Assembly (NCBI GenBank): GCA_965238275.1
Contig: OZ250186.1
Coordinates: 421,982-485,981, forward strand
Origin: Nitrosopumilus sp.
GTDB taxonomy: Archaea; Thermoproteota; Nitrososphaeria; Nitrososphaerales; Nitrosopumilaceae
Length of the DNA stretch: 64,000 nt
Direction: 5' to 3'
The notes beneath the pieces were generated by a model. The model had not been told where the DNA came from and ran no database searches. It worked only from the letters and a program-made list of their open reading frames with translations. Position numbers and translations under genes: made by a program. Of the stretch, positions 2,912 through 49,446 are shown one piece after another; the first letter of the stretch is position 1, and the number at the start of each line of letters is the position of its first letter.

Positions 2912-4539
2912 TCCGGCCCCTCTGCTGTTCCGTCGCGCCTGACCTCGGCGATCCCCTGGAATCCCCCCTCCCCGGTGTTCCTCTTCAGGACTGCGTGTAT
3001 CGCGCCCATAAAGAACGAGTACCTGTCCCGCACGTCTATCTTGTAGCCTGTCTTCTTCAGCTGTTTTATGATATCAGGGGCATGCTCGTCTTTCTCTATG
3101 CTGACCTTCCCGTCAAGGGAGCAGTGAATCCTGGGCTTTGACATGGCCACGTCAATCGGGTCTCCACCGTCAATCACGCGCGATATGAAATGGCTCACGA
3201 CTGAAAAGATTCTCGAGGAACCCGGACTCCCCAGGACCATCCACGGCTCGTGGTTGTAAAAGATGATTGCAGGGGATACGGACGTCCAGGGGATTGAGTT
3301 GGGCCTGAGATAGAACGGGTGGTTCGGGTTCTCAAACTCAAAGGCGGACATGTAGTTGTTGTACAGGAATCCGAGTCCGTCGGCTGCGGCCTTTGAGCCG
3401 TACACCAGCTCGATGGACTGGGTGATGCCCACGGCGTTTCCCTCCCCGTCCATCACCGAAAGATGCGTCGTATCCTCGATGTCAGGCAACTCCCTCAGCG
3501 GCAGGTCAGGATCAATGGAGTCCCGGATTGATTTTGAAAGGGATCTTGCAAACTTTCTGCTCAGGTGGGTCCTCTGGTCTATCTGGTGGTATGTCACGGG
3601 GTTGAACTTTCTCTGCGTCCTGTACAGCAGCGCCTTTCGGAACGTCTCGGCTACAAAGTGGTACGACTGCGGATCCCTTCCTCTAAGAAAGGACCTTTTC
3701 AGGTTTGCAAGCATCATCAGCACCAGCAGCATCGTATCGCCTGCAGAGGGGGGCGGCATGGTCGAGATCCGGATTCCGCGGTATCTTCTGCTGAGCGGCT
3801 TGCGCTCGACGGGTTCGGGTATCAGCGCAAGATCCTCCAGGTGCAGAAACCCGCGGTTGATCCTCATGTCCTTGTCAATCAGCCTGGCCACCATTCCGTG
3901 GTAGAACGAGCGGTAGCCGTTCTGTGATATGTACTTGAGGGTCTCTGCAAGATCCTCCTGGACGAACAGATCCCCGACGCCGTATGGCTCCATGCCGTCC
4001 TTGAGAAAGTACCTTGCGCCGGACCTGGATCCCACCCTGAAGAACTTTGCAAGGTTATTTGCCTGCAGCTTGTGCTGGAGTGGGGTTATCCTGTATCCGT
4101 TCCTTGCAATGCGGATCGCCGGCTCTGCCACGTCTGCCCAGTCCAGCCGTCCGTACGCCTCGCTGAGGTATCCCAGTGTCGCAACCGTACTGGGAACAGT
4201 CGTTGCCCTGTATCCGATGAACCTGTGGGAGTGCTTTTCATAGAACGTTCTGTGCGCAAGGGACGGGGCCCTGCTTGAGCCGTCGACTGCTACGGTCTTG
4301 CCGTCAATGTTCATGATGGCAAGGGACTGGCCACCTATTCCGGACGACTGGGGCTCGCAGACTCCCAGCGCAAGGGCCGTGGCACACGCAGCATCGACTG
4401 CGTTTCCGCCCTTTTCAAGCATGCTCACCCCCGCCCGGGTGGCCTCAGGAAATGCAGAGGAGACCATCCCTCCCCGGGCAACAGAGCATTTCTTGTCAGG
4501 GGACGGCCGGAACGAGTCCTCTATCCCTTCAATGTCCAT
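2908..4539 (-). CDS. ggt: gamma-glutamyltranspeptidase
   Basis: 543 aa. Autoprocessing/nucleophile region DTTHLSVMDGEGNAVGITQSIE and GSPGSSRI near the C-terminus. Confidence 0.9.
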   Translation of the reverse strand: MDIEGIEDSFRPSPDKKCSVARGGMVSSAFPEATRAGVSMLEKGGNAVDAACATALALGVCEPQSSGIGGQSLAIMNIDGKTVAVDGSSRAPSLAHRTFYEKHSHRFIGYRATTVPSTVATLGYLSEAYGRLDWADVAEPAIRIARNGYRITPLQHKLQANNLAKFFRVGSRSGARYFLKDGMEPYGVGDLFVQEDLAETLKYISQNGYRSFYHGMVARLIDKDMRINRGFLHLEDLALIPEPVERKPLSRRYRGIRISTMPPPSAGDTMLLVLMMLANLKRSFLRGRDPQSYHFVAETFRKALLYRTQRKFNPVTYHQIDQRTHLSRKFARSLSKSIRDSIDPDLPLRELPDIEDTTHLSVMDGEGNAVGITQSIELVYGSKAAADGLGFLYNNYMSAFEFENPNHPFYLRPNSIPWTSVSPAIIFYNHEPWMVLGSPGSSRIFSVVSHFISRVIDGGDPIDVAMSKPRIHCSLDGKVSIEKDEHAPDIIKQLKKTGYKIDVRDRYSFFMGAIHAVLKRNTGEGGFQGIAEVRRDGTAEGPE

Positions 4540-6185
4540 CTAGATCCTTCCCGCAGTGGGGGCATTTGCTCCCGCCGCCGCCGCCGCCGCCCTGCCTCTT
4601 CCTTCTCAGCTCCTCGGTAAACGCAGACGCCATGATGCCTGCCGGAATTGCATACACTGCAATCCCAAGTATGGCAACCCCGCTGGCAACTATCTTGCCC
4701 AGGACGGTAACAGGATAGGTGTCGCCGTACCCTATTGTATAGCGGCGAGCGAAAGTTCGTGCAAACAGATCTCTCTGTAGCATGTCCTGATGCCCTTTCC
4801 GGCGCTCTGTCAGATCTTCCAACATCATCCTCCTTGTTGCCGGGTCCAAGCCGGCTTGTCGAATCGTTCATTCCAGAACCATCCGATCCGTGATCCTCGC
4901 GCCTTGTGACGACCTCGACACCTGCAATGGTGCCTCCACGATTCCCGTGGGCTTGGCCGCCAGTCTCCCCCGTATGGAGACAGTCATTATCCAAAATGTT
5001 TTTTGCCGCGTTCTTGTCGGCATGGTGGTACCACCCGCAGGACACGCAGACAAAGGATTCGCCGTTTCTGGACTTCTTGTCCACTATTTGGCAGGCAGCG
5101 CATTTCTGGCTCGTGTACGTGTATTTCACGCGTTTTGCAACGCCGCCTTTCTTTTTCATCTGCCATTCAAGCTGACATCGAAACTCCCCCATCCTGGAGT
5201 ATGCCATCTCGCGGTTCAGCCCCGTCTTTGAAGCCGCCCCGTTGGATCGCCTCATCTTGGTCAAATCCAGGTCTTCCAAGAACAATGTAGACAGCCCTTT
5301 TGTTATCCGCCTGGCAATGTCGATCTCGTTGTGTTTTTGCCTGTTTGATATATTTTTCAATTCATGCGCTATCTTGCGGCCGATCTCTTTCCATCTTCTG
5401 GAGCCTGTCTGGCATCTTGATCTAAGTGATTTCAGCTGATCAATCCTGTCGCCGTCATGCCTCTTGCAGTCTCCCGGGACATTGTACAATTTTTCATTCC
5501 CATGCTCGTCTGCGACTGCCGCAAGGTGCCTGACTCCAAGATCCAATCCGGCCTTGCAGCTGTCGCCGTCGCCGTCTGTCACGGGTTCGGGATCCGGAAC
5601 CTCGATTTGCAGGCACAGTCTGAATTCGCAGTCAGAATCTTTCGTCCTGCGCGTGACTTTTTTCGTAACATCAATCATCTGGAATGACACGAGCCTGCCT
5701 TCCGGGATCTTTACGCGCGGCCTTACTTCCCCGAGTCCGGGCAGAAATACGGTGCCGTCGTCCCGCAGTTTTGGCTTTCCGCGTGAATTCAGCGAGCGCA
5801 GCCTGGTTGTTTTCCTGCCGCGCCTCATCAGGCCAGACGGCTCGGTCCACCTGTTGTGCCTGTACGTCTTCTTTTTCCCCAGCTTGATCTGTTTCTTGCA
5901 CCAGATGCGCTTGTTGTGCTTGAGCCGGTTTGCCTTGCGGAATTTGACTGCCGCCTGGAAAGCCTGTTTTGAGGCGGCCTCATGCATGCGGACGCTGTTG
6001 GTCAGGCCGAATTCCCTGCGCCATCCTGTTATCAGGTTGTTGACATCAAACTGCGTGATTCTGGGATGTGTGAGTTTCATCATGATCGTCATGTCGTAAA
6101 TGATGTCTGTTTCCCGAGAGCATTTCACGATCTTGCGCGACAGTTCCCGAGATTGTGTTATCTTGATGATTTTGCTGACAATCAT
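4521..6185 (-). CDS. tnpB: TnpB (IS200/IS605-superfamily RuvC-like RNA-guided nuclease); conserved core ends near 4983, remainder is read-through
   Basis: RuvC motifs GLDLGVRH, TLFLEDLDL and HADKNAAKNI. Zinc ribbon CAACQ...CVSCG. The ORF has no stop inside the element and runs through the end repeat into host DNA. Confidence 0.85.
   Translation of the reverse strand: MIVSKIIKITQSRELSRKIVKCSRETDIIYDMTIMMKLTHPRITQFDVNNLITGWRREFGLTNSVRMHEAASKQAFQAAVKFRKANRLKHNKRIWCKKQIKLGKKKTYRHNRWTEPSGLMRRGRKTTRLRSLNSRGKPKLRDDGTVFLPGLGEVRPRVKIPEGRLVSFQMIDVTKKVTRRTKDSDCEFRLCLQIEVPDPEPVTDGDGDSCKAGLDLGVRHLAAVADEHGNEKLYNVPGDCKRHDGDRIDQLKSLRSRCQTGSRRWKEIGRKIAHELKNISNRQKHNEIDIARRITKGLSTLFLEDLDLTKMRRSNGAASKTGLNREMAYSRMGEFRCQLEWQMKKKGGVAKRVKYTYTSQKCAACQIVDKKSRNGESFVCVSCGWYHHADKNAAKNILDNDCLHTGETGGQAHGNRGGTIAGVEVVTRREDHGSDGSGMNDSTSRLGPGNKEDDVGRSDRAPERASGHATERSVCTNFRSPLYNRVRRHLSCYRPGQDSCQRGCHTWDCSVCNSGRHHGVCVYRGAEKEEAGRRRRRREQMPPLREGSRWTLKG
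4529..4739 (-). pseudogene. minimal 2-TM K+ channel, C-terminal fragment (filter TIGYGD, TM2, poly-Gly, CPHC tail)
   Basis: Reverse translation from 4738 gives TIGYGDTYPVTVLGKIVASGVAILGIAVYAIPAGIMASAF, then GGGGGGGSKCPHCGKDLDGH. Joins in frame to fragment 6256-6430 when the insert is removed. Confidence 0.85.
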
Positions 6186-6255
6186 GCCTGTAATTGTAAT
6201 TTCATTTTCTTAAAAAGATACCCAAAAAAATTGCACGAACTTTCGCTTTTCACTA
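4740..6255 (-). mobile_element. TnpB-only insertion element, 1516 bp, 25-bp imperfect terminal inverted repeats, TA at both junctions
   Basis: Left end is TAGCGGCGAGCGAAAGTTCGTGCAA (4740-4764). Reverse complement of the right end is TAGTGAAAAGCGAAAGTTCGTGCAA (6231-6255). TA lies at 4738-4739 and 6256-6257. Removing the element plus one TA restores the host reading frame. Confidence 0.85.
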
Positions 6256-6430
6256 TAGTCAGCGTGACTATCCCCCACCACATCGATGCCGGAATGCTGG
6301 AGAAGACCTCCGGCTGCGCTGCGTTCTCTGCATAGTACATCAGGCTGGAGGCAAAGATCACGCTGAATAACCCCGAAAGGCCGACAAGGGCTGCAGGGGC
6401 TGCTGCTGCCAGTTCAGGTTCAAGGGCCAT
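6256..6430 (-). pseudogene. minimal 2-TM K+ channel, N-terminal fragment (TM1 and pore helix)
   Basis: MALEPELAAAAPAALVGLSGLFSVIFASSLMYYAENAAQPEVFSSIPASMWWGIVTLT. The ATG at 6428-6430 overlaps the upstream stop as TAATG. Confidence 0.85.
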
Positions 6431-8616
6431 TACGCAGCACACCTGTAGATTACGGAGGCGAGCAGCGAGGCCCTCTCGACGATGCTGTCATGGACTATGT
6501 ATTCCTGGGGGGTGCGGTACATGTGGCCTATTGGGCCAAAGCCGTCAAGGGACGGAAGCTCGGCGGGAACGTTGCTGATGTCTGATGACATTATCTGCTC
6601 GTGCCGCTTGATCTTGATCTCGTGCTTGCCGGCAAGGTCCTCGACCATTTCATAGAATGCCGTATCCGATGCCTCCTCGATTACCGGCGGCCTGCTCTGA
6701 ATCTTCTGGATGGTGACGTCGAGTCTTTGTGTGCCGGCCTCATGCTTCTTCATGATGTCCCGTATCCTGGCGTCAAGAAGCGTTCCCAGCTGAAGCGTCT
6801 TGTAGCTGCATATGAGTGAGAGGGTGGCATAGTTTGGGGTGTGGCCGTGCGTTCCCTGGGCCACAACAGAGGTGGTCCTTACCCTGTAGTCCTTTTCGTC
6901 CTTTGATATCTTTTCTATTGCAGATATCTTCTTTGCCAGTGAAGGAATTATTCCATGGATGTCTGATGACGTGTTGGATGCCGTGAAACGAATCTGGTAG
7001 TCGCCCCTCCCGTAGCATGTCGTGATTATTCCCCCTTCCTTGCTGGCAGACTTGAGACCCACGATATACTTTGATGTCTTGGAGTAGTGCCTTACCAGGT
7101 TCTTGCTGAACTTTCCCCCCAGGCTGTCATCGGTGGTGAGAAGTATGGCGCACCTTATCTTGCGCAGTCTTTTTGCAAAGCGGAGCGCATGCAGGGCACC
7201 CAGCATTACTGCCAGCCCGCCCTTGCTCTCGGCTATTCCGGAACCAAGTATCTTGTAGTCGTCCTCGTAGTAGTTTACCAGTTCGCTTGGGCCGTAGTGG
7301 GTGTCGGTATGGGATACTATCAGGATGTCGTTTTTGGGTTCGTTGTGGTTTTTGAAATAGCGAAAGTCCCCCACATCAAACTGCCTGTGGACGTGCTCCC
7401 TGAATCCCAAGTGCTTTAGCCTGCGGGACATGATCTCCCCGAGCTTGTTTACGTTGTCTATGTTGTATACGTGGGTGTTGAGGTTTACAAGATCCCTCAG
7501 TGTCTCCTTTATGCTGTGCAGGTGCCCCCTCAGGTACGTCCTTGCAACCACGCGCAGGGGCTGGGTCATGTCCGGCTCGCCTTCCATGTGGTGGGATGCG
7601 CCAAAGTAGCGCATCACGGCAACGTCAAGAATCTTGTTGATTAGCGAATCATACGTGTATCCGGTGGTCTTTGCAGCATGGTACAGCGAGCCGCCCATCC
7701 CCAGGCTGGCCATCGAGTTCAGCTCAAGGATGTAGAGGTTCTCGTCCTGATCCATTCGAAGATCCACCCTGCTGTAGTCGTTGAGCCCCAGGCATCGAAA
7801 CGCCTGCATGCACAGCTGCTTCATCTCCTGGGTCTTCTCGTCTGAGAGTTGCGCCGGACATGTCTTGTCTGTTCCGCCCTTCTTCATCTTGTCAGATATG
7901 GTCTGTATCTGGTTTGGATTGTCCAGGCTTATCTCGACTATCGGGAGTACGTCTATGTTGGGATTGTTCCCAATTACCCCCACTGCAAACTCCCGGCCCG
8001 GGATGAACTGCTCCACCAGGATCTCCTGCTGGAACTTTTCAATCTGCTTCTGTACTGCCTTTCTGAGGGAGTCCCAGTTGTCCACCACCTCCATCCCCAT
8101 GGAGGTGGATTCCAGCTTTGGCTTTACGATTACGGGAAATTCCAGATCATCAAAGGTATCCTCAGAGGTCTTGAACTCCCAGAATCCCGGGGTGGGGATG
8201 CCGTTTCTCTGCAGGATTATCTTGGTCATGACCTTGTCCTGGACGATTGCGTGTCCTGCAGGCCCCGAGCCTATGTATGGAATGCCAAGCATCTCCATCA
8301 TTGCCGGGACATGGGTGTACCTGTTCTGTCCCTGAATTCCGTATGCCATGTTAAAGACCATCCCCGGGGAGTCCCCTGCAACCACCTTGGGCATGAACTC
8401 GCGCAGCTCGTCTGCCATGTGGATGTCCCCCTCGATCACCTTGACTGTGTGTCCGCCCTTTTCCAGTGCCCGTGCGACACGCTCGACTGCCTTGGCGCTG
8501 TAGTGCTCCTTGGTGACTGTGCCAAAGACGTTGATGACATCATTTGGGTTTATCTCTTTTTCATTATAGATTAGCGCGACCTTCAATTGAGCTCTCTTCT
8601 CAAGCATTGTTTGCAT
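6430..8616 (-). CDS. fusion protein: D-Ala-D-Ala-ligase-like ATP-grasp domain plus M20-peptidase-like domain
   Basis: N-terminal half has the ATP-grasp pattern (VIVKPKLESTSMGMEV, EQFIPGREFAVGV, YILELNSMASLG). C-terminal half is M20-like (LIVSHTDTHYGP, GIAESKGGLAVMLGAL, DGFGPIGHMYRTPQEY). Confidence 0.7.
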   Translation of the reverse strand: MQTMLEKRAQLKVALIYNEKEINPNDVINVFGTVTKEHYSAKAVERVARALEKGGHTVKVIEGDIHMADELREFMPKVVAGDSPGMVFNMAYGIQGQNRYTHVPAMMEMLGIPYIGSGPAGHAIVQDKVMTKIILQRNGIPTPGFWEFKTSEDTFDDLEFPVIVKPKLESTSMGMEVVDNWDSLRKAVQKQIEKFQQEILVEQFIPGREFAVGVIGNNPNIDVLPIVEISLDNPNQIQTISDKMKKGGTDKTCPAQLSDEKTQEMKQLCMQAFRCLGLNDYSRVDLRMDQDENLYILELNSMASLGMGGSLYHAAKTTGYTYDSLINKILDVAVMRYFGASHHMEGEPDMTQPLRVVARTYLRGHLHSIKETLRDLVNLNTHVYNIDNVNKLGEIMSRRLKHLGFREHVHRQFDVGDFRYFKNHNEPKNDILIVSHTDTHYGPSELVNYYEDDYKILGSGIAESKGGLAVMLGALHALRFAKRLRKIRCAILLTTDDSLGGKFSKNLVRHYSKTSKYIVGLKSASKEGGIITTCYGRGDYQIRFTASNTSSDIHGIIPSLAKKISAIEKISKDEKDYRVRTTSVVAQGTHGHTPNYATLSLICSYKTLQLGTLLDARIRDIMKKHEAGTQRLDVTIQKIQSRPPVIEEASDTAFYEMVEDLAGKHEIKIKRHEQIMSSDISNVPAELPSLDGFGPIGHMYRTPQEYIVHDSIVERASLLASVIYRCAA

Positions 8617-12024: not shown

Positions 12025-12612
12025 ATTATGACATACTTGCAGATGAAAGAAACGCAAAACCACACTTGCATATGGGCGTCACATTGACTGGAACGTATAT
12101 GTTCTGCAGGGACAGAGGCATGGTAACAGCGATGGTAAAAGAACAAAATCCAAAATGTATGGTAAAATGCCAGGAGAGAAAATATCCTATAAGAAAAATC
12201 CCGGAAAAATGGACATTGTATTTTCTACGGATATTGAGGGGAGTACACGGAGATCTACTGTTACTATTTTTGAGTTGAAAGAAACAACCCCAGAGATAAT
12301 GATTATTGTTGAAAGAATTCTGGTATTGGGGTGTGCTGGATGGAACCTGCTCCAAAATATCTTCAAGTTCATCAAGCGGCATGGCCCCGTATTCAATCAT
12401 GGTTCTATAGCGACGAGCACGAGTTCGTGTAGTCTGGCCTCCTTCATGATTAGTGGCTACAGGTCGTGGTTTTGTCTGGGGTATGTTTTGTCCAACGGTG
12501 TTCCAATCACGGCAATCGTGGCGGTACAGGTCAGGGAACATTTGGGCATCAACGGATTTTGCACAAATCCCGCGTCTCAAAGTTTAAATGGTTTTCAACA
12601 GCGCTGGTTTCT

Positions 12613-48568: not shown

Positions 48569-49446
48569 TCACGCCGGTGGCCAATCTACCAGATAGCCTG
48601 CAAGTCGGTTGCCCATCTCTTTTTCAAGGATTGTCGTTATTGCCGCTTTCAACTCATCTTGGGATGCAAAGTACCTTCCCGCCAACTGTCCCTTGAGATC
48701 CTTCCAGACGTTTTCGATCTGATTCAGCTGCGGCGTGCGAGGCAGAAGAAATTCCAGCTCGACGTTTCTGTCGGTACCGGCCACGTACTCTCTGACCTTG
48801 TGGGAATGGTGGTACGACGCGTTGTCCAGAACTATAGAATTTTGGGTAACTCTTGCAGGCATCCTCGAGGAATTCCTTGAAGGTATCAGAGTTTGCATGG
48901 TCTACCATACAGATGAAGAGCATGTCTGTGCCCATAATGCTAAGCAGGCAGACTGCCTTTTTCGAGAAGCCAGTATGGATGGTGTCGCGCCCTCCCGTGG
49001 ACCTCACCTGTAGCCAGATCCCTCCTGCGACATACCGATTGCGGTCTCATCTTCGACGAACATGGCATGACCGTTCCAGGCAAGTTCCCCTGCCCTCCTG
49101 CTAGCCTTGGCCTTGAACTCTTCTTGCTCGCTTTCTGAGGCTGACTTGAACGGAACCGGCCTAGTTTTTTGGTAGGAGAACCCGATCCTTTTGAGCATTC
49201 TTCGCAGCGTGCGCGCCTTGCAATCCTTCCAAACTCCCACCGGATCATCTCCCGTATCAAGTTGAGCTGCCAAGAGCCTGACTCGAATCCGTATTTTTTT
49301 GGCTGTAATTGAACCACGCCCGAACCGTCCTGAGAAAGGATTTGGGCATCATGCTTTCCTGCCTCTCGTGTCCGGTTGAACCGAGTCTTCAGTCCCCGTC
49401 GCCCCCGCATCCGCACCAGCCATTCACGCACAATCGAATACGGCAT
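48569..49446 (-). pseudogene. IS630/Tc1-mariner-family transposase remnant, multiple frameshifts and no N-terminal HTH
   Basis: Pieces lie in three frames: QLQPKKYGFESGSWQLNLIREMI, TLRRMLKRIGFSYQKTRP, VLDNASYHHSHKV...PRTPQLNQIENVWKDLK. Element boundaries were not resolved. Confidence 0.75.

Follow-up and report, generated by a model that had tools for sequence, protein, structure and literature searches.

How does a solitary tnpB gene come to lie between terminal inverted repeats (TIRs) with a TA at either junction, and what kind of enzyme could have put it there? Cas12 and the eukaryotic Fanzors both descend from TnpB, which textbooks tie to two kinds of insertion sequence (IS), namely IS605, which has hairpin ends, and IS607, which has a serine recombinase. 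The element that raises the question occupies positions 4740-6255 on the minus strand of a 64-kb stretch of contig OZ250186.1 (the whole stretch that was analysed, hereafter the window); it is 1516 bp long, has tnpB as its sole gene and interrupts a K+ channel gene. From the analysis given below we conclude, with moderate confidence, that it is a recently mobile, non-autonomous archaeal DNA transposon carrying a complete obligate mobile element-guided activity (OMEGA) module, that is, TnpB and its RNA scaffold, between 25-bp TIRs with TA on both sides, and that it was most likely inserted in trans, DDE enzymes of the IS630/Tc1-mariner type being the leading candidate.

Results

Borders of the element and the interrupted channel gene

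The element was read on the minus strand of the window, so that its left end (LE) lies upstream of tnpB and its right end (RE) downstream. A repeat search, in which the TA was included, returned inverted arms at 4738-4764 (TATAGCGGCGAGCGAAAGTTCGTGCAA) and 6231-6257 (TTGCACGAACTTTCGCTTTTCACTATA). The RE repeat proper (4740..4764, minus strand, inward reading TAGCGGCGAGCGAAAGTTCGTGCAA) scores 37 bits with a weight matrix built for the family of related elements described below, and the LE repeat (6231..6255, plus strand, inward minus-strand reading TAGTGAAAAGCGAAAGTTCGTGCAA) scores 33.6 bits. Each is 25 bp long; 21 of the 25 positions are identical between them and the inner 17 match perfectly. 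The 17-mer AGCGAAAGTTCGTGCAA has exactly two matches in the 64 kb, one on each strand, with up to three mismatches permitted, and 0.22 would be expected by chance. Directly outside the RE there is a TA (4738..4739), and the flank next to the LE reads CTA on the minus strand (6256..6258), the TA itself occupying 6256-6257.

Both flanking open reading frames (ORFs) match the Pfam families Ion_trans_2 and Ion_trans. The N-terminal fragment of the channel (...SMWWGIVTLT) is encoded at 6258..6442 and the C-terminal fragment, which runs from TIGYGDTYP... through a CPHCG zinc ribbon to the stop codon, at 4529..4739 (Ion_trans_2, 1.1e-7), both on the minus strand and both belonging to a single interrupted gene for a channel with two transmembrane segments (2-TM). 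Removal of 4740-6255 together with one TA in silico gives GTCACGCTGACTACAATAGGGTACGGCGAC, which encodes VTLTTIGYGD, and leaves a single TA in the restored target. The rebuilt 2-TM channel has 127 amino acids and aligns with eight homologues without a gap at the junction between TLT and TIGYGD; T56, L57, T58, T59, I60, G61, Y62, G63 and D64 are invariant across the rebuilt channel and the eight homologues. As no empty site was found at the nucleotide level in the searches made, and the protein database held no intact K+ channel above 78% identity, the duplication of the TA rests on this gap-free restoration of the channel protein.

A preliminary description of the locus had placed a TnpB-only element at 4740-6255 within the K+ selectivity filter, with TA at 4738-4739 and at 6256-6257, and had predicted that deletion of the element plus one TA would restore VTLTTIGYGD and a channel of roughly 127 amino acids; the Pfam and NCBIfam models, the flanking Ion_trans ORFs and the alignment with the eight homologues bear it out on each of these points. 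Its 25-bp ends are indeed inverted and terminal, but they are not perfect 25-mers, and while it was right about the TA at each junction, it overlooked that the conserved flank upstream of tnpB is CTA and is specific to one orientation. The empty sites that it had asked about were not among our matches.

Related insertions with the same ends

A protein search returned 28 TnpB relatives, several of them on the same archaeal contigs of 1.1-2.3 Mb. Genes flanking the relatives include those for a thermosome subunit, TFIIB and MptE, and the host is therefore an archaeon. Full-length copies were found in unrelated contexts at loci L001, L002, L117, L119, L120, L121 (two nested copies), L123, L124 and L126. 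These copies were seen at 77-98% DNA identity, and TnpB identity in the family falls to 45%. ENA contigs that carry copies include ERZ26167216 ctg495273, ERZ25072670 ctg256733, ERZ25067264 ctg836449 and ERZ28763718 ctg124865. All are about 1.5 kb long with tnpB as the sole gene, and none of the copies, at about 12 loci, has a transposase gene inside; the other transposases seen at these loci belong to separate or nested ISs with ends of their own.

The same ends and TA junctions are retained in ten or more independent insertions of relatives with 44-98% TnpB identity, and a TA follows the RE in 12/12 of the RE junctions examined, so that the inverted ends and TA noted first in the window recur in every copy that was looked at. 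Even distant members keep this arrangement, as seen from the ends of L123 (45% TnpB identity), cgccTA-TAGTGACACGCCAAAGT...GCTCGTCACTA-TAcatg, and of L124 (56% TnpB identity), tgtcTA-TACTGACGCGCAAAAGTTC...GCGCGTCGGTA-TAatgg. In four subfamilies the two repeats of one element are exactly terminal and identical at 18-21 of 25 positions. Moreover, both ends change in pairs, with TAG/TAG in three subfamilies and TAC/TAC in L124. Since the ends are alike within a subfamily and change together between subfamilies, they behave as true TIRs that are recognised symmetrically and not as chance resemblances.

The family is narrow, comprising 25 representative clusters at E<=1e-30 among 1.84 billion proteins. 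Neither the TnpB protein alignment nor the 25-bp TIR pattern had a match in the JGI metagenome contigs or in the IMG/VR viral contigs, and tblastn against plasmids returned distant TnpBs only (<=27% identity). A search of genome contigs (596 Gb) with the 16-mer GCRAAAGTTCGTGCAA gave 114 loci (L003-L116), all of them single matches in unrelated bacteria, where hundreds would be expected by chance. Loci L001, L122 and L126 sit on one contig of 1,135,675 bp, and the 554-amino-acid product of the tnpB frame in the window is likewise recorded on a contig of this length; we infer that the window lies on this contig as well, and the genome of the window thus probably carries at least four copies from three subfamilies.

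Traces of older insertions were also seen. A solitary TIR-like site at 12406-12432 of the window (plus strand, gttcTA-TAGCGACGAGCACGAGTTCGTGTAG), which has a TA before it, scores 25 bits with the family weight matrix, with about 0.01 such sites expected in the DNA searched. A minus-strand ORF starts on one side of it (~12398) and a tRNA-Val gene lies on the other (12613); no guide-RNA homology was detected beside it, and an old copy has probably left it as a remnant. Apart from this site, at 12408, the ~137 kb of archaeal DNA sampled (the window and the other loci) contained no further match to the TIR. Another ORF, P0025 (276 amino acids, on a 1.89-Mb contig), begins as a host-like frame and runs into a 5'-truncated copy that keeps the last ~95 codons, namely the guide-RNA region and the RE; scaffold-only remnants therefore exist in these genomes.

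Two of the loci, L121 (2382-5384) and L126 (~2934-4517), are orthologous and come from two genomes. In L121 an element of the 77% type hosts a second copy, 90% identical to the window element, which lies in inverse orientation at GATAC-TA-GAAGG in the guide-RNA region. In L126 a chimeric tnpB (P0059), with the N-terminus of one type and the C-terminus of the other, is followed by an RE of the window type, by a TA and by the final 78 bp of the older element. The pattern suggests insertion into a palindromic CTAG and then recombination between the copies.

A one-sided preference for C at the target

The base that precedes the TA on the LE side is C in 10/10 independent left-end junctions. Only 17.5% of the TAs in the window have a C before them, which gives a binomial p of 2.6e-8. 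At the mirror position, past the TA on the RE side, the complementary G is present in 4/12 junctions, and the two sides differ significantly (Fisher p = 0.0017). The target is thus wider than TA and asymmetric, of the form C-TA, and it fits a transposon-adjacent motif (TAM) CTA, which TnpB would be the one to read. A one-sided preference is unlike a purely symmetric transposase and is expected if TnpB needs a motif in the flank of the LE. We also observed, post hoc, that the base five positions before the LE (6260 in the window) is G or T in 10/10 insertions, giving KNCTA; this may be chance.

The TnpB protein and its reading frame

The tnpB frame (4521..6185, minus strand) begins with an ATG at 6185 and encodes 554 amino acids, of which residues 1 to ~400 (to about 4985) form the conserved TnpB core. 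The product matches the Pfam families OrfB_IS605 (47.3 bits, cut-off 30.5; 2.9e-12) and Cas12f1-like_TNB (54.8 bits, cut-off 26.3; 1e-14), and passes the NCBIfam guided_TnpB model (116 bits against a cut-off of 100). Among 17-19 relatives the RuvC triad D215/E304/D390 and the zinc finger C362/C365/C380/C383 are invariant or nearly so, and these positions align with the GVDLG, VEDL and DRDENAA motifs of solved TnpB-like proteins. As the catalytic and zinc-finger residues are both conserved and aligned with those of solved proteins, the nuclease looks catalytically intact and active. Of the NCBIfam subtype models, IS607_TnpB (96.8 bits) scores above IS200_TnpB (62.4 bits), both being far under their cut-offs. 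The closest natural relative with a solved structure, as found by profile search, is a mimivirus protein deposited as "TnpB-like protein L79", to which the similarity is distant and which we take to be an IS607/Fanzor2-like protein.

There is no stop codon in the tnpB frame inside the element; the frame continues across the scaffold and the RE into the channel gene and stops at 4521. Since it is open through the RE into the flank, the homologues have lengths of 479-554 amino acids that differ with the flank. Within the window subfamily (window 4521-4739, minus strand, and homologues P0001-P0006) the predicted tail of ~80 amino acids differs from insertion to insertion, and the frame stops at once if G or A succeeds the TA on the RE side. 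On the other side of the gene, an A/T-rich box (TTTTTAAGAAAA; 6205..6216, minus strand) lies ~20 nt upstream of the ATG. A TTTTTAAG-like box is kept at the same place between the LE repeat and the ATG in all subfamilies, and it is probably an archaeal TATA-type promoter.

A covarying RNA that includes the right-end repeat

The region assigned to the guide-RNA scaffold (omegaRNA, or right-end element RNA, reRNA) spans 4738..4980 on the minus strand, where it overlaps the 3' part of the tnpB frame and extends to the RE. It was analysed in an alignment, A4, of the last 243 nt of 10 copies. The consensus fold has 55 pairs in 11 helices, and 25 of the pairs show compensatory changes. In all, 98% of the alignment cells concerned are paired, as against 33-45% after the partners are slid by 1-3 columns, and the observed level of covariation was reached by 0/500 shuffles. 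No Rfam model matched the element, whether gathering thresholds or a limit of E<=5 were applied.

In helices 9-10 the outer half of the RE repeat (TTTCGCTCGCC) pairs with CGGAAAGRGC ~45 nt upstream, and the pairing is preserved in the compensatory variants GAGC/GCTC, GAGA/TCTC and GUGC/GCGC. The RE repeat is therefore both the end of the transposon and the last stem of the scaffold. From its covariation and its place at the end of tnpB, the structured RNA that reaches the RE is the predicted guide-RNA scaffold of TnpB, and the guide would come from the flank below 4738.

Search for the mobilising enzyme

The preliminary description had reported a degenerate IS630 transposase at 48.6-49.4 kb and hinted that it could be the partner of the tnpB element. 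The IS630 remnant is real (48569-49446, minus strand), with DDE_3 and HTH_33 matches on different, frameshifted ORFs. It shares ~65% DNA identity with an intact IS630 at L120 (1128-2496), which encodes a protein of 363 amino acids with HTH_32, HTH_33 and DDE_3 domains and is nested in an 81%-identical copy, just past the start codon of its tnpB. The remnant in the window has no clear TIRs left and nothing like the ends of the tnpB element, and the 17-mer has no other match in the window. The intact IS630 has the junctions AAACGCG-TA-GTACCGGCCAC...GTGGCCGCTAC-TA-CGCGTT, in which CGCG is part of either its TIR or its target. Neither could be retained as a partner, for the termini of both are unrelated to the TIRs of the tnpB element.

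Regular-expression scans for serine-recombinase and Y1 motifs, which are a crude test, gave no hit in the ~137 kb of archaeal DNA. The search for a cognate TnpA, a serine recombinase or an IS630 with matching ends, which had been proposed at the outset, was thus negative in the ~137 kb sampled. The most likely candidate for the mobilising enzyme is a TA-specific DDE transposase acting in trans.

An element of another family was noticed at the ends of two copies. IS110-family elements (DEDD_Tnp_IS110 and Transposase_20) are found at L001 (~1657-2947) and L122 (~1250-2953), on the contig that these loci share. They are inserted at the same position within the LE TIR of two tnpB subfamilies, between AGCGAAAG and TTCGTGCAA in one and between CGCAAAAG and TTTGTGCAG in the other. 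The 5' non-coding region of the IS110 holds the right half of the target in reverse complement (CACGAACTT) and also copies the left half in a co-varying manner, with GCGAAAG in L001 (1745-1751) and GCAAAAG in L122 (1338-1344). This region looks like a bridge/seek RNA programmed toward the ends of the tnpB transposon. The situation is comparable to that of IS4321 and IS5075, which target the TIRs of Tn21.

Discussion

From these results, a hypothesis regarding the life cycle of the element may be put forward. A transposase supplied in trans would bind both repeats and integrate the element at a TA. Transcription from the LE promoter would then yield the tnpB mRNA together with a scaffold of ~240 nt, and as the transcript crosses the RE repeat, the last stem of the scaffold, and the TA, the flank would become the guide. 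If the element were lost, the site would read 5'-C-TA-[guide match]; TnpB, with CTA as its TAM, would cut, and recombination with the sister chromosome would put the element back. Insertions without the C would be unprotected and hence lost, which would produce the one-sided bias. A need for C before the TA on the LE side would also account for the persistence of insertions in that orientation alone.

Several observations weigh against such a scheme. No transposase with matching ends was found in the window or at the other loci, within the ~137 kb sampled. Symmetric insertion by a DDE enzyme does not by itself predict a one-sided C, and selection by TnpB must be invoked. According to a 2026 review (PMC13565253), OMEGA modules are normally linked to scarless HUH or serine enzymes. 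Finally, the IS607_TnpB model outscores IS200_TnpB, though each falls far short of its cut-off, and the profile search gave mimivirus L79 as the nearest natural protein with a solved structure.

Some of these points would suit a derivative of the IS607 type, in which a serine-recombinase TnpA, its gene lying elsewhere, would recombine a TA core with a target TA, one of the two TAs belonging to the element and none being duplicated. A dinucleotide shared by both junctions looks the same in sequence as a 2-bp duplication, the asymmetric target resembles the (G)GG preference of IS607, and a TAM CTA would parallel the GGG TAM of ISXfa1 over its GG core; ISXfa1-type TnpBs are also among the best plasmid matches, at 26% identity, and the order of the NCBIfam scores points the same way, even if neither comes near its cut-off. 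The termini of IS607 are, however, described as mutually unrelated and not inverted (PMC6188088), and TnpBs associated with serine recombinases have asymmetric ends (PMC10691335), whereas every subfamily here has its repeats exactly at the two termini. No serine-recombinase TnpA was seen in any copy or in the neighbouring genes that we could see, nor did the rough motif scan of ~137 kb reveal one, and we consider this origin unlikely. The preliminary description had left the choice between an IS607-like derivative and a non-autonomous transposon of the TIR/TA type; the latter fits the anatomy best, with terminal, symmetric and co-evolving TIRs, TA everywhere, no hairpin at the LE and no internal transposase, and the former is weakened.

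Were the element a classical member of the IS1341 group of IS200/IS605, moved as single-stranded DNA by a Y1 TnpA acting in trans, it would insert 3' of ...CTA without duplication, and its similar subterminal hairpins would only look like TIRs. As single-stranded DNA the LE folds no better than shuffled controls in three subfamilies (z = -0.17, -0.48 and +0.44, the first being the LE of the window element), which rules out canonical IS605 ends; the hairpin-type structures that the preliminary description had named as a refutation are thus lacking at the LE. The 17-bp shared core is not palindromic, and the two ends thus present complementary, not identical, sequences on one strand; furthermore, the IS200/IS605 family is defined as having subterminal hairpins and no TIRs and as inserting 3' of a 4-5-nt target without duplication, and no Y1 motif was found in the rough scan of ~137 kb or inside any copy. 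It is true that an invariant flank on the left side only recalls the target sites of IS605, which double as TAM, that a tnpB-only layout is that of the IS1341 group, and that an element ending in ...CTATA is formally compatible, a left flank ...CTA and an element end ...TA giving the same sequence as a duplicated TA. Because of the TIRs and the missing LE hairpin this option is disfavoured, and we regard it as very improbable.

A further alternative does away with a dedicated transposase. The family would spread by an unrecognised route, in which, for example, the conserved ends are handled by a host or unrelated enzyme, or TnpB breaks are repaired by copying of the element. The family is narrow, with its 25 clusters, and the tnpB-only layout persists across subfamilies down to 45% TnpB identity, without a partner in about 12 loci; the sample of each genome is small, though, and solo TnpBs with trans-acting partners have been documented (PMC10691335). 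RNA-guided cutting restores an element and cannot pick new TA sites, and exact ends beside an unchanging dinucleotide, seen at many unrelated sites, are what a site-directed recombinase or transposase leaves behind. We hold this alternative to be quite doubtful. The same low probability applies to its boldest form, a TA-inserting, TIR-bounded archaeal lineage of tnpB-only elements with more than 50% protein divergence and no cognate transposase anywhere, which would owe its mobility to TnpB and its omegaRNA themselves or to the action of a host enzyme on the conserved ends, the RE repeat serving as recombination site and guide-RNA stem at once.

The arrangement of TnpB within inverted ends is rare and has already been reported, both in prokaryotes, in DDE/TIR elements described in 2023, and as Fanzors. 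Altae-Tran et al. (2023, PNAS; PMC10691335) described TnpB branches DDE-1 to DDE-6 with inverted terminal repeats, DDE-6 being associated with IS630 and a helix-turn-helix (HTH) protein (see also PMC13565253); TnpBs linked to IS630 have symmetrical ends, and some solo TnpBs share their ends with transposase-bearing copies, which implies mobilisation in trans. These published prokaryotic TnpBs were missed in the preliminary description, as was the part played by the RE TIR in the scaffold. The present family resembles those branches in that a prokaryotic TnpB lies within symmetric inverted repeats and its 3' end is near the transposon end; it differs in its archaeal host and in having no DDE or HTH gene inside the repeats at about 12 loci. 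The TA junction, the CTA bias and the pairing of the TIR within the scaffold are documented here and not in that study. What this family adds, then, is a lineage that is archaeal and tnpB-only throughout, TA junctions that are set out explicitly and biased toward CTA, and covariation evidence for a TIR in the scaffold.

Fanzor1 and Fanzor2* proteins of eukaryotes and their viruses are found in Tc1/mariner and other TIR transposons (Bao & Jurka 2013, PMC3627910; Yoon et al. 2023, PMC10711439). The TIR and the target-site duplication (TSD) of Fanzor elements form part of the guide scaffold, and the TnpBs of IS607 likewise absorb a fixed flanking nucleotide (PMC10711439). In our family, as in Fanzors, a nuclease of the TnpB family is all that a non-autonomous transposon encodes between its TIRs, a short TSD (here an apparent one) flanks them, the TIR belongs to the scaffold and the guide would begin beyond it. 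Unlike Fanzors, it is prokaryotic and has the canonical RuvC triad, and its similarity to mimivirus L79 is distant. The family is a clean prokaryotic example of the Fanzor-like layout, in which the predicted TAM, CTA, contains the junction dinucleotide.

With IS607 elements (IS607, IS1535 and ISXfa1), which have short direct subterminal motifs and a core that is usually GG (PMC6188088), the family shares the presence of the same dinucleotide at both junctions and, if CTA is the TAM as proposed here, a TAM made of the core and one 5' base, as in GGG of ISXfa1. IS607 elements carry a serine-recombinase tnpA, lack TIRs and usually have GG, whereas the present elements have TIRs and TA and no tnpA. 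The resemblance to the IS1341 group lies in the single tnpB, the size of about 1.3-1.5 kb, the 3' guide RNA and the target or TAM in the left flank; IS200/IS605 elements differ by their subterminal hairpins and the lack of TIRs, in contrast to the TIRs and the hairpin-free LE found here. An RNA-guided nuclease of this kind, small (with a core of about 400 amino acids), archaeal and with a short predicted TAM, would also be on offer for testing.

Ends such as those of this family, with TIRs of ~25 bp, a TA to either side and one TA left in the restored target, are the signature of the IS630/Tc1-mariner group. IS630 itself prefers CTAG. The differences are that the element contains no DDE_3 transposase, that its target is one-sided and that the two IS630 relatives seen have unrelated ends. 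The family offers a natural setting in which to study how RNA-guided homing and a transposase of the cut-and-paste type may coexist.

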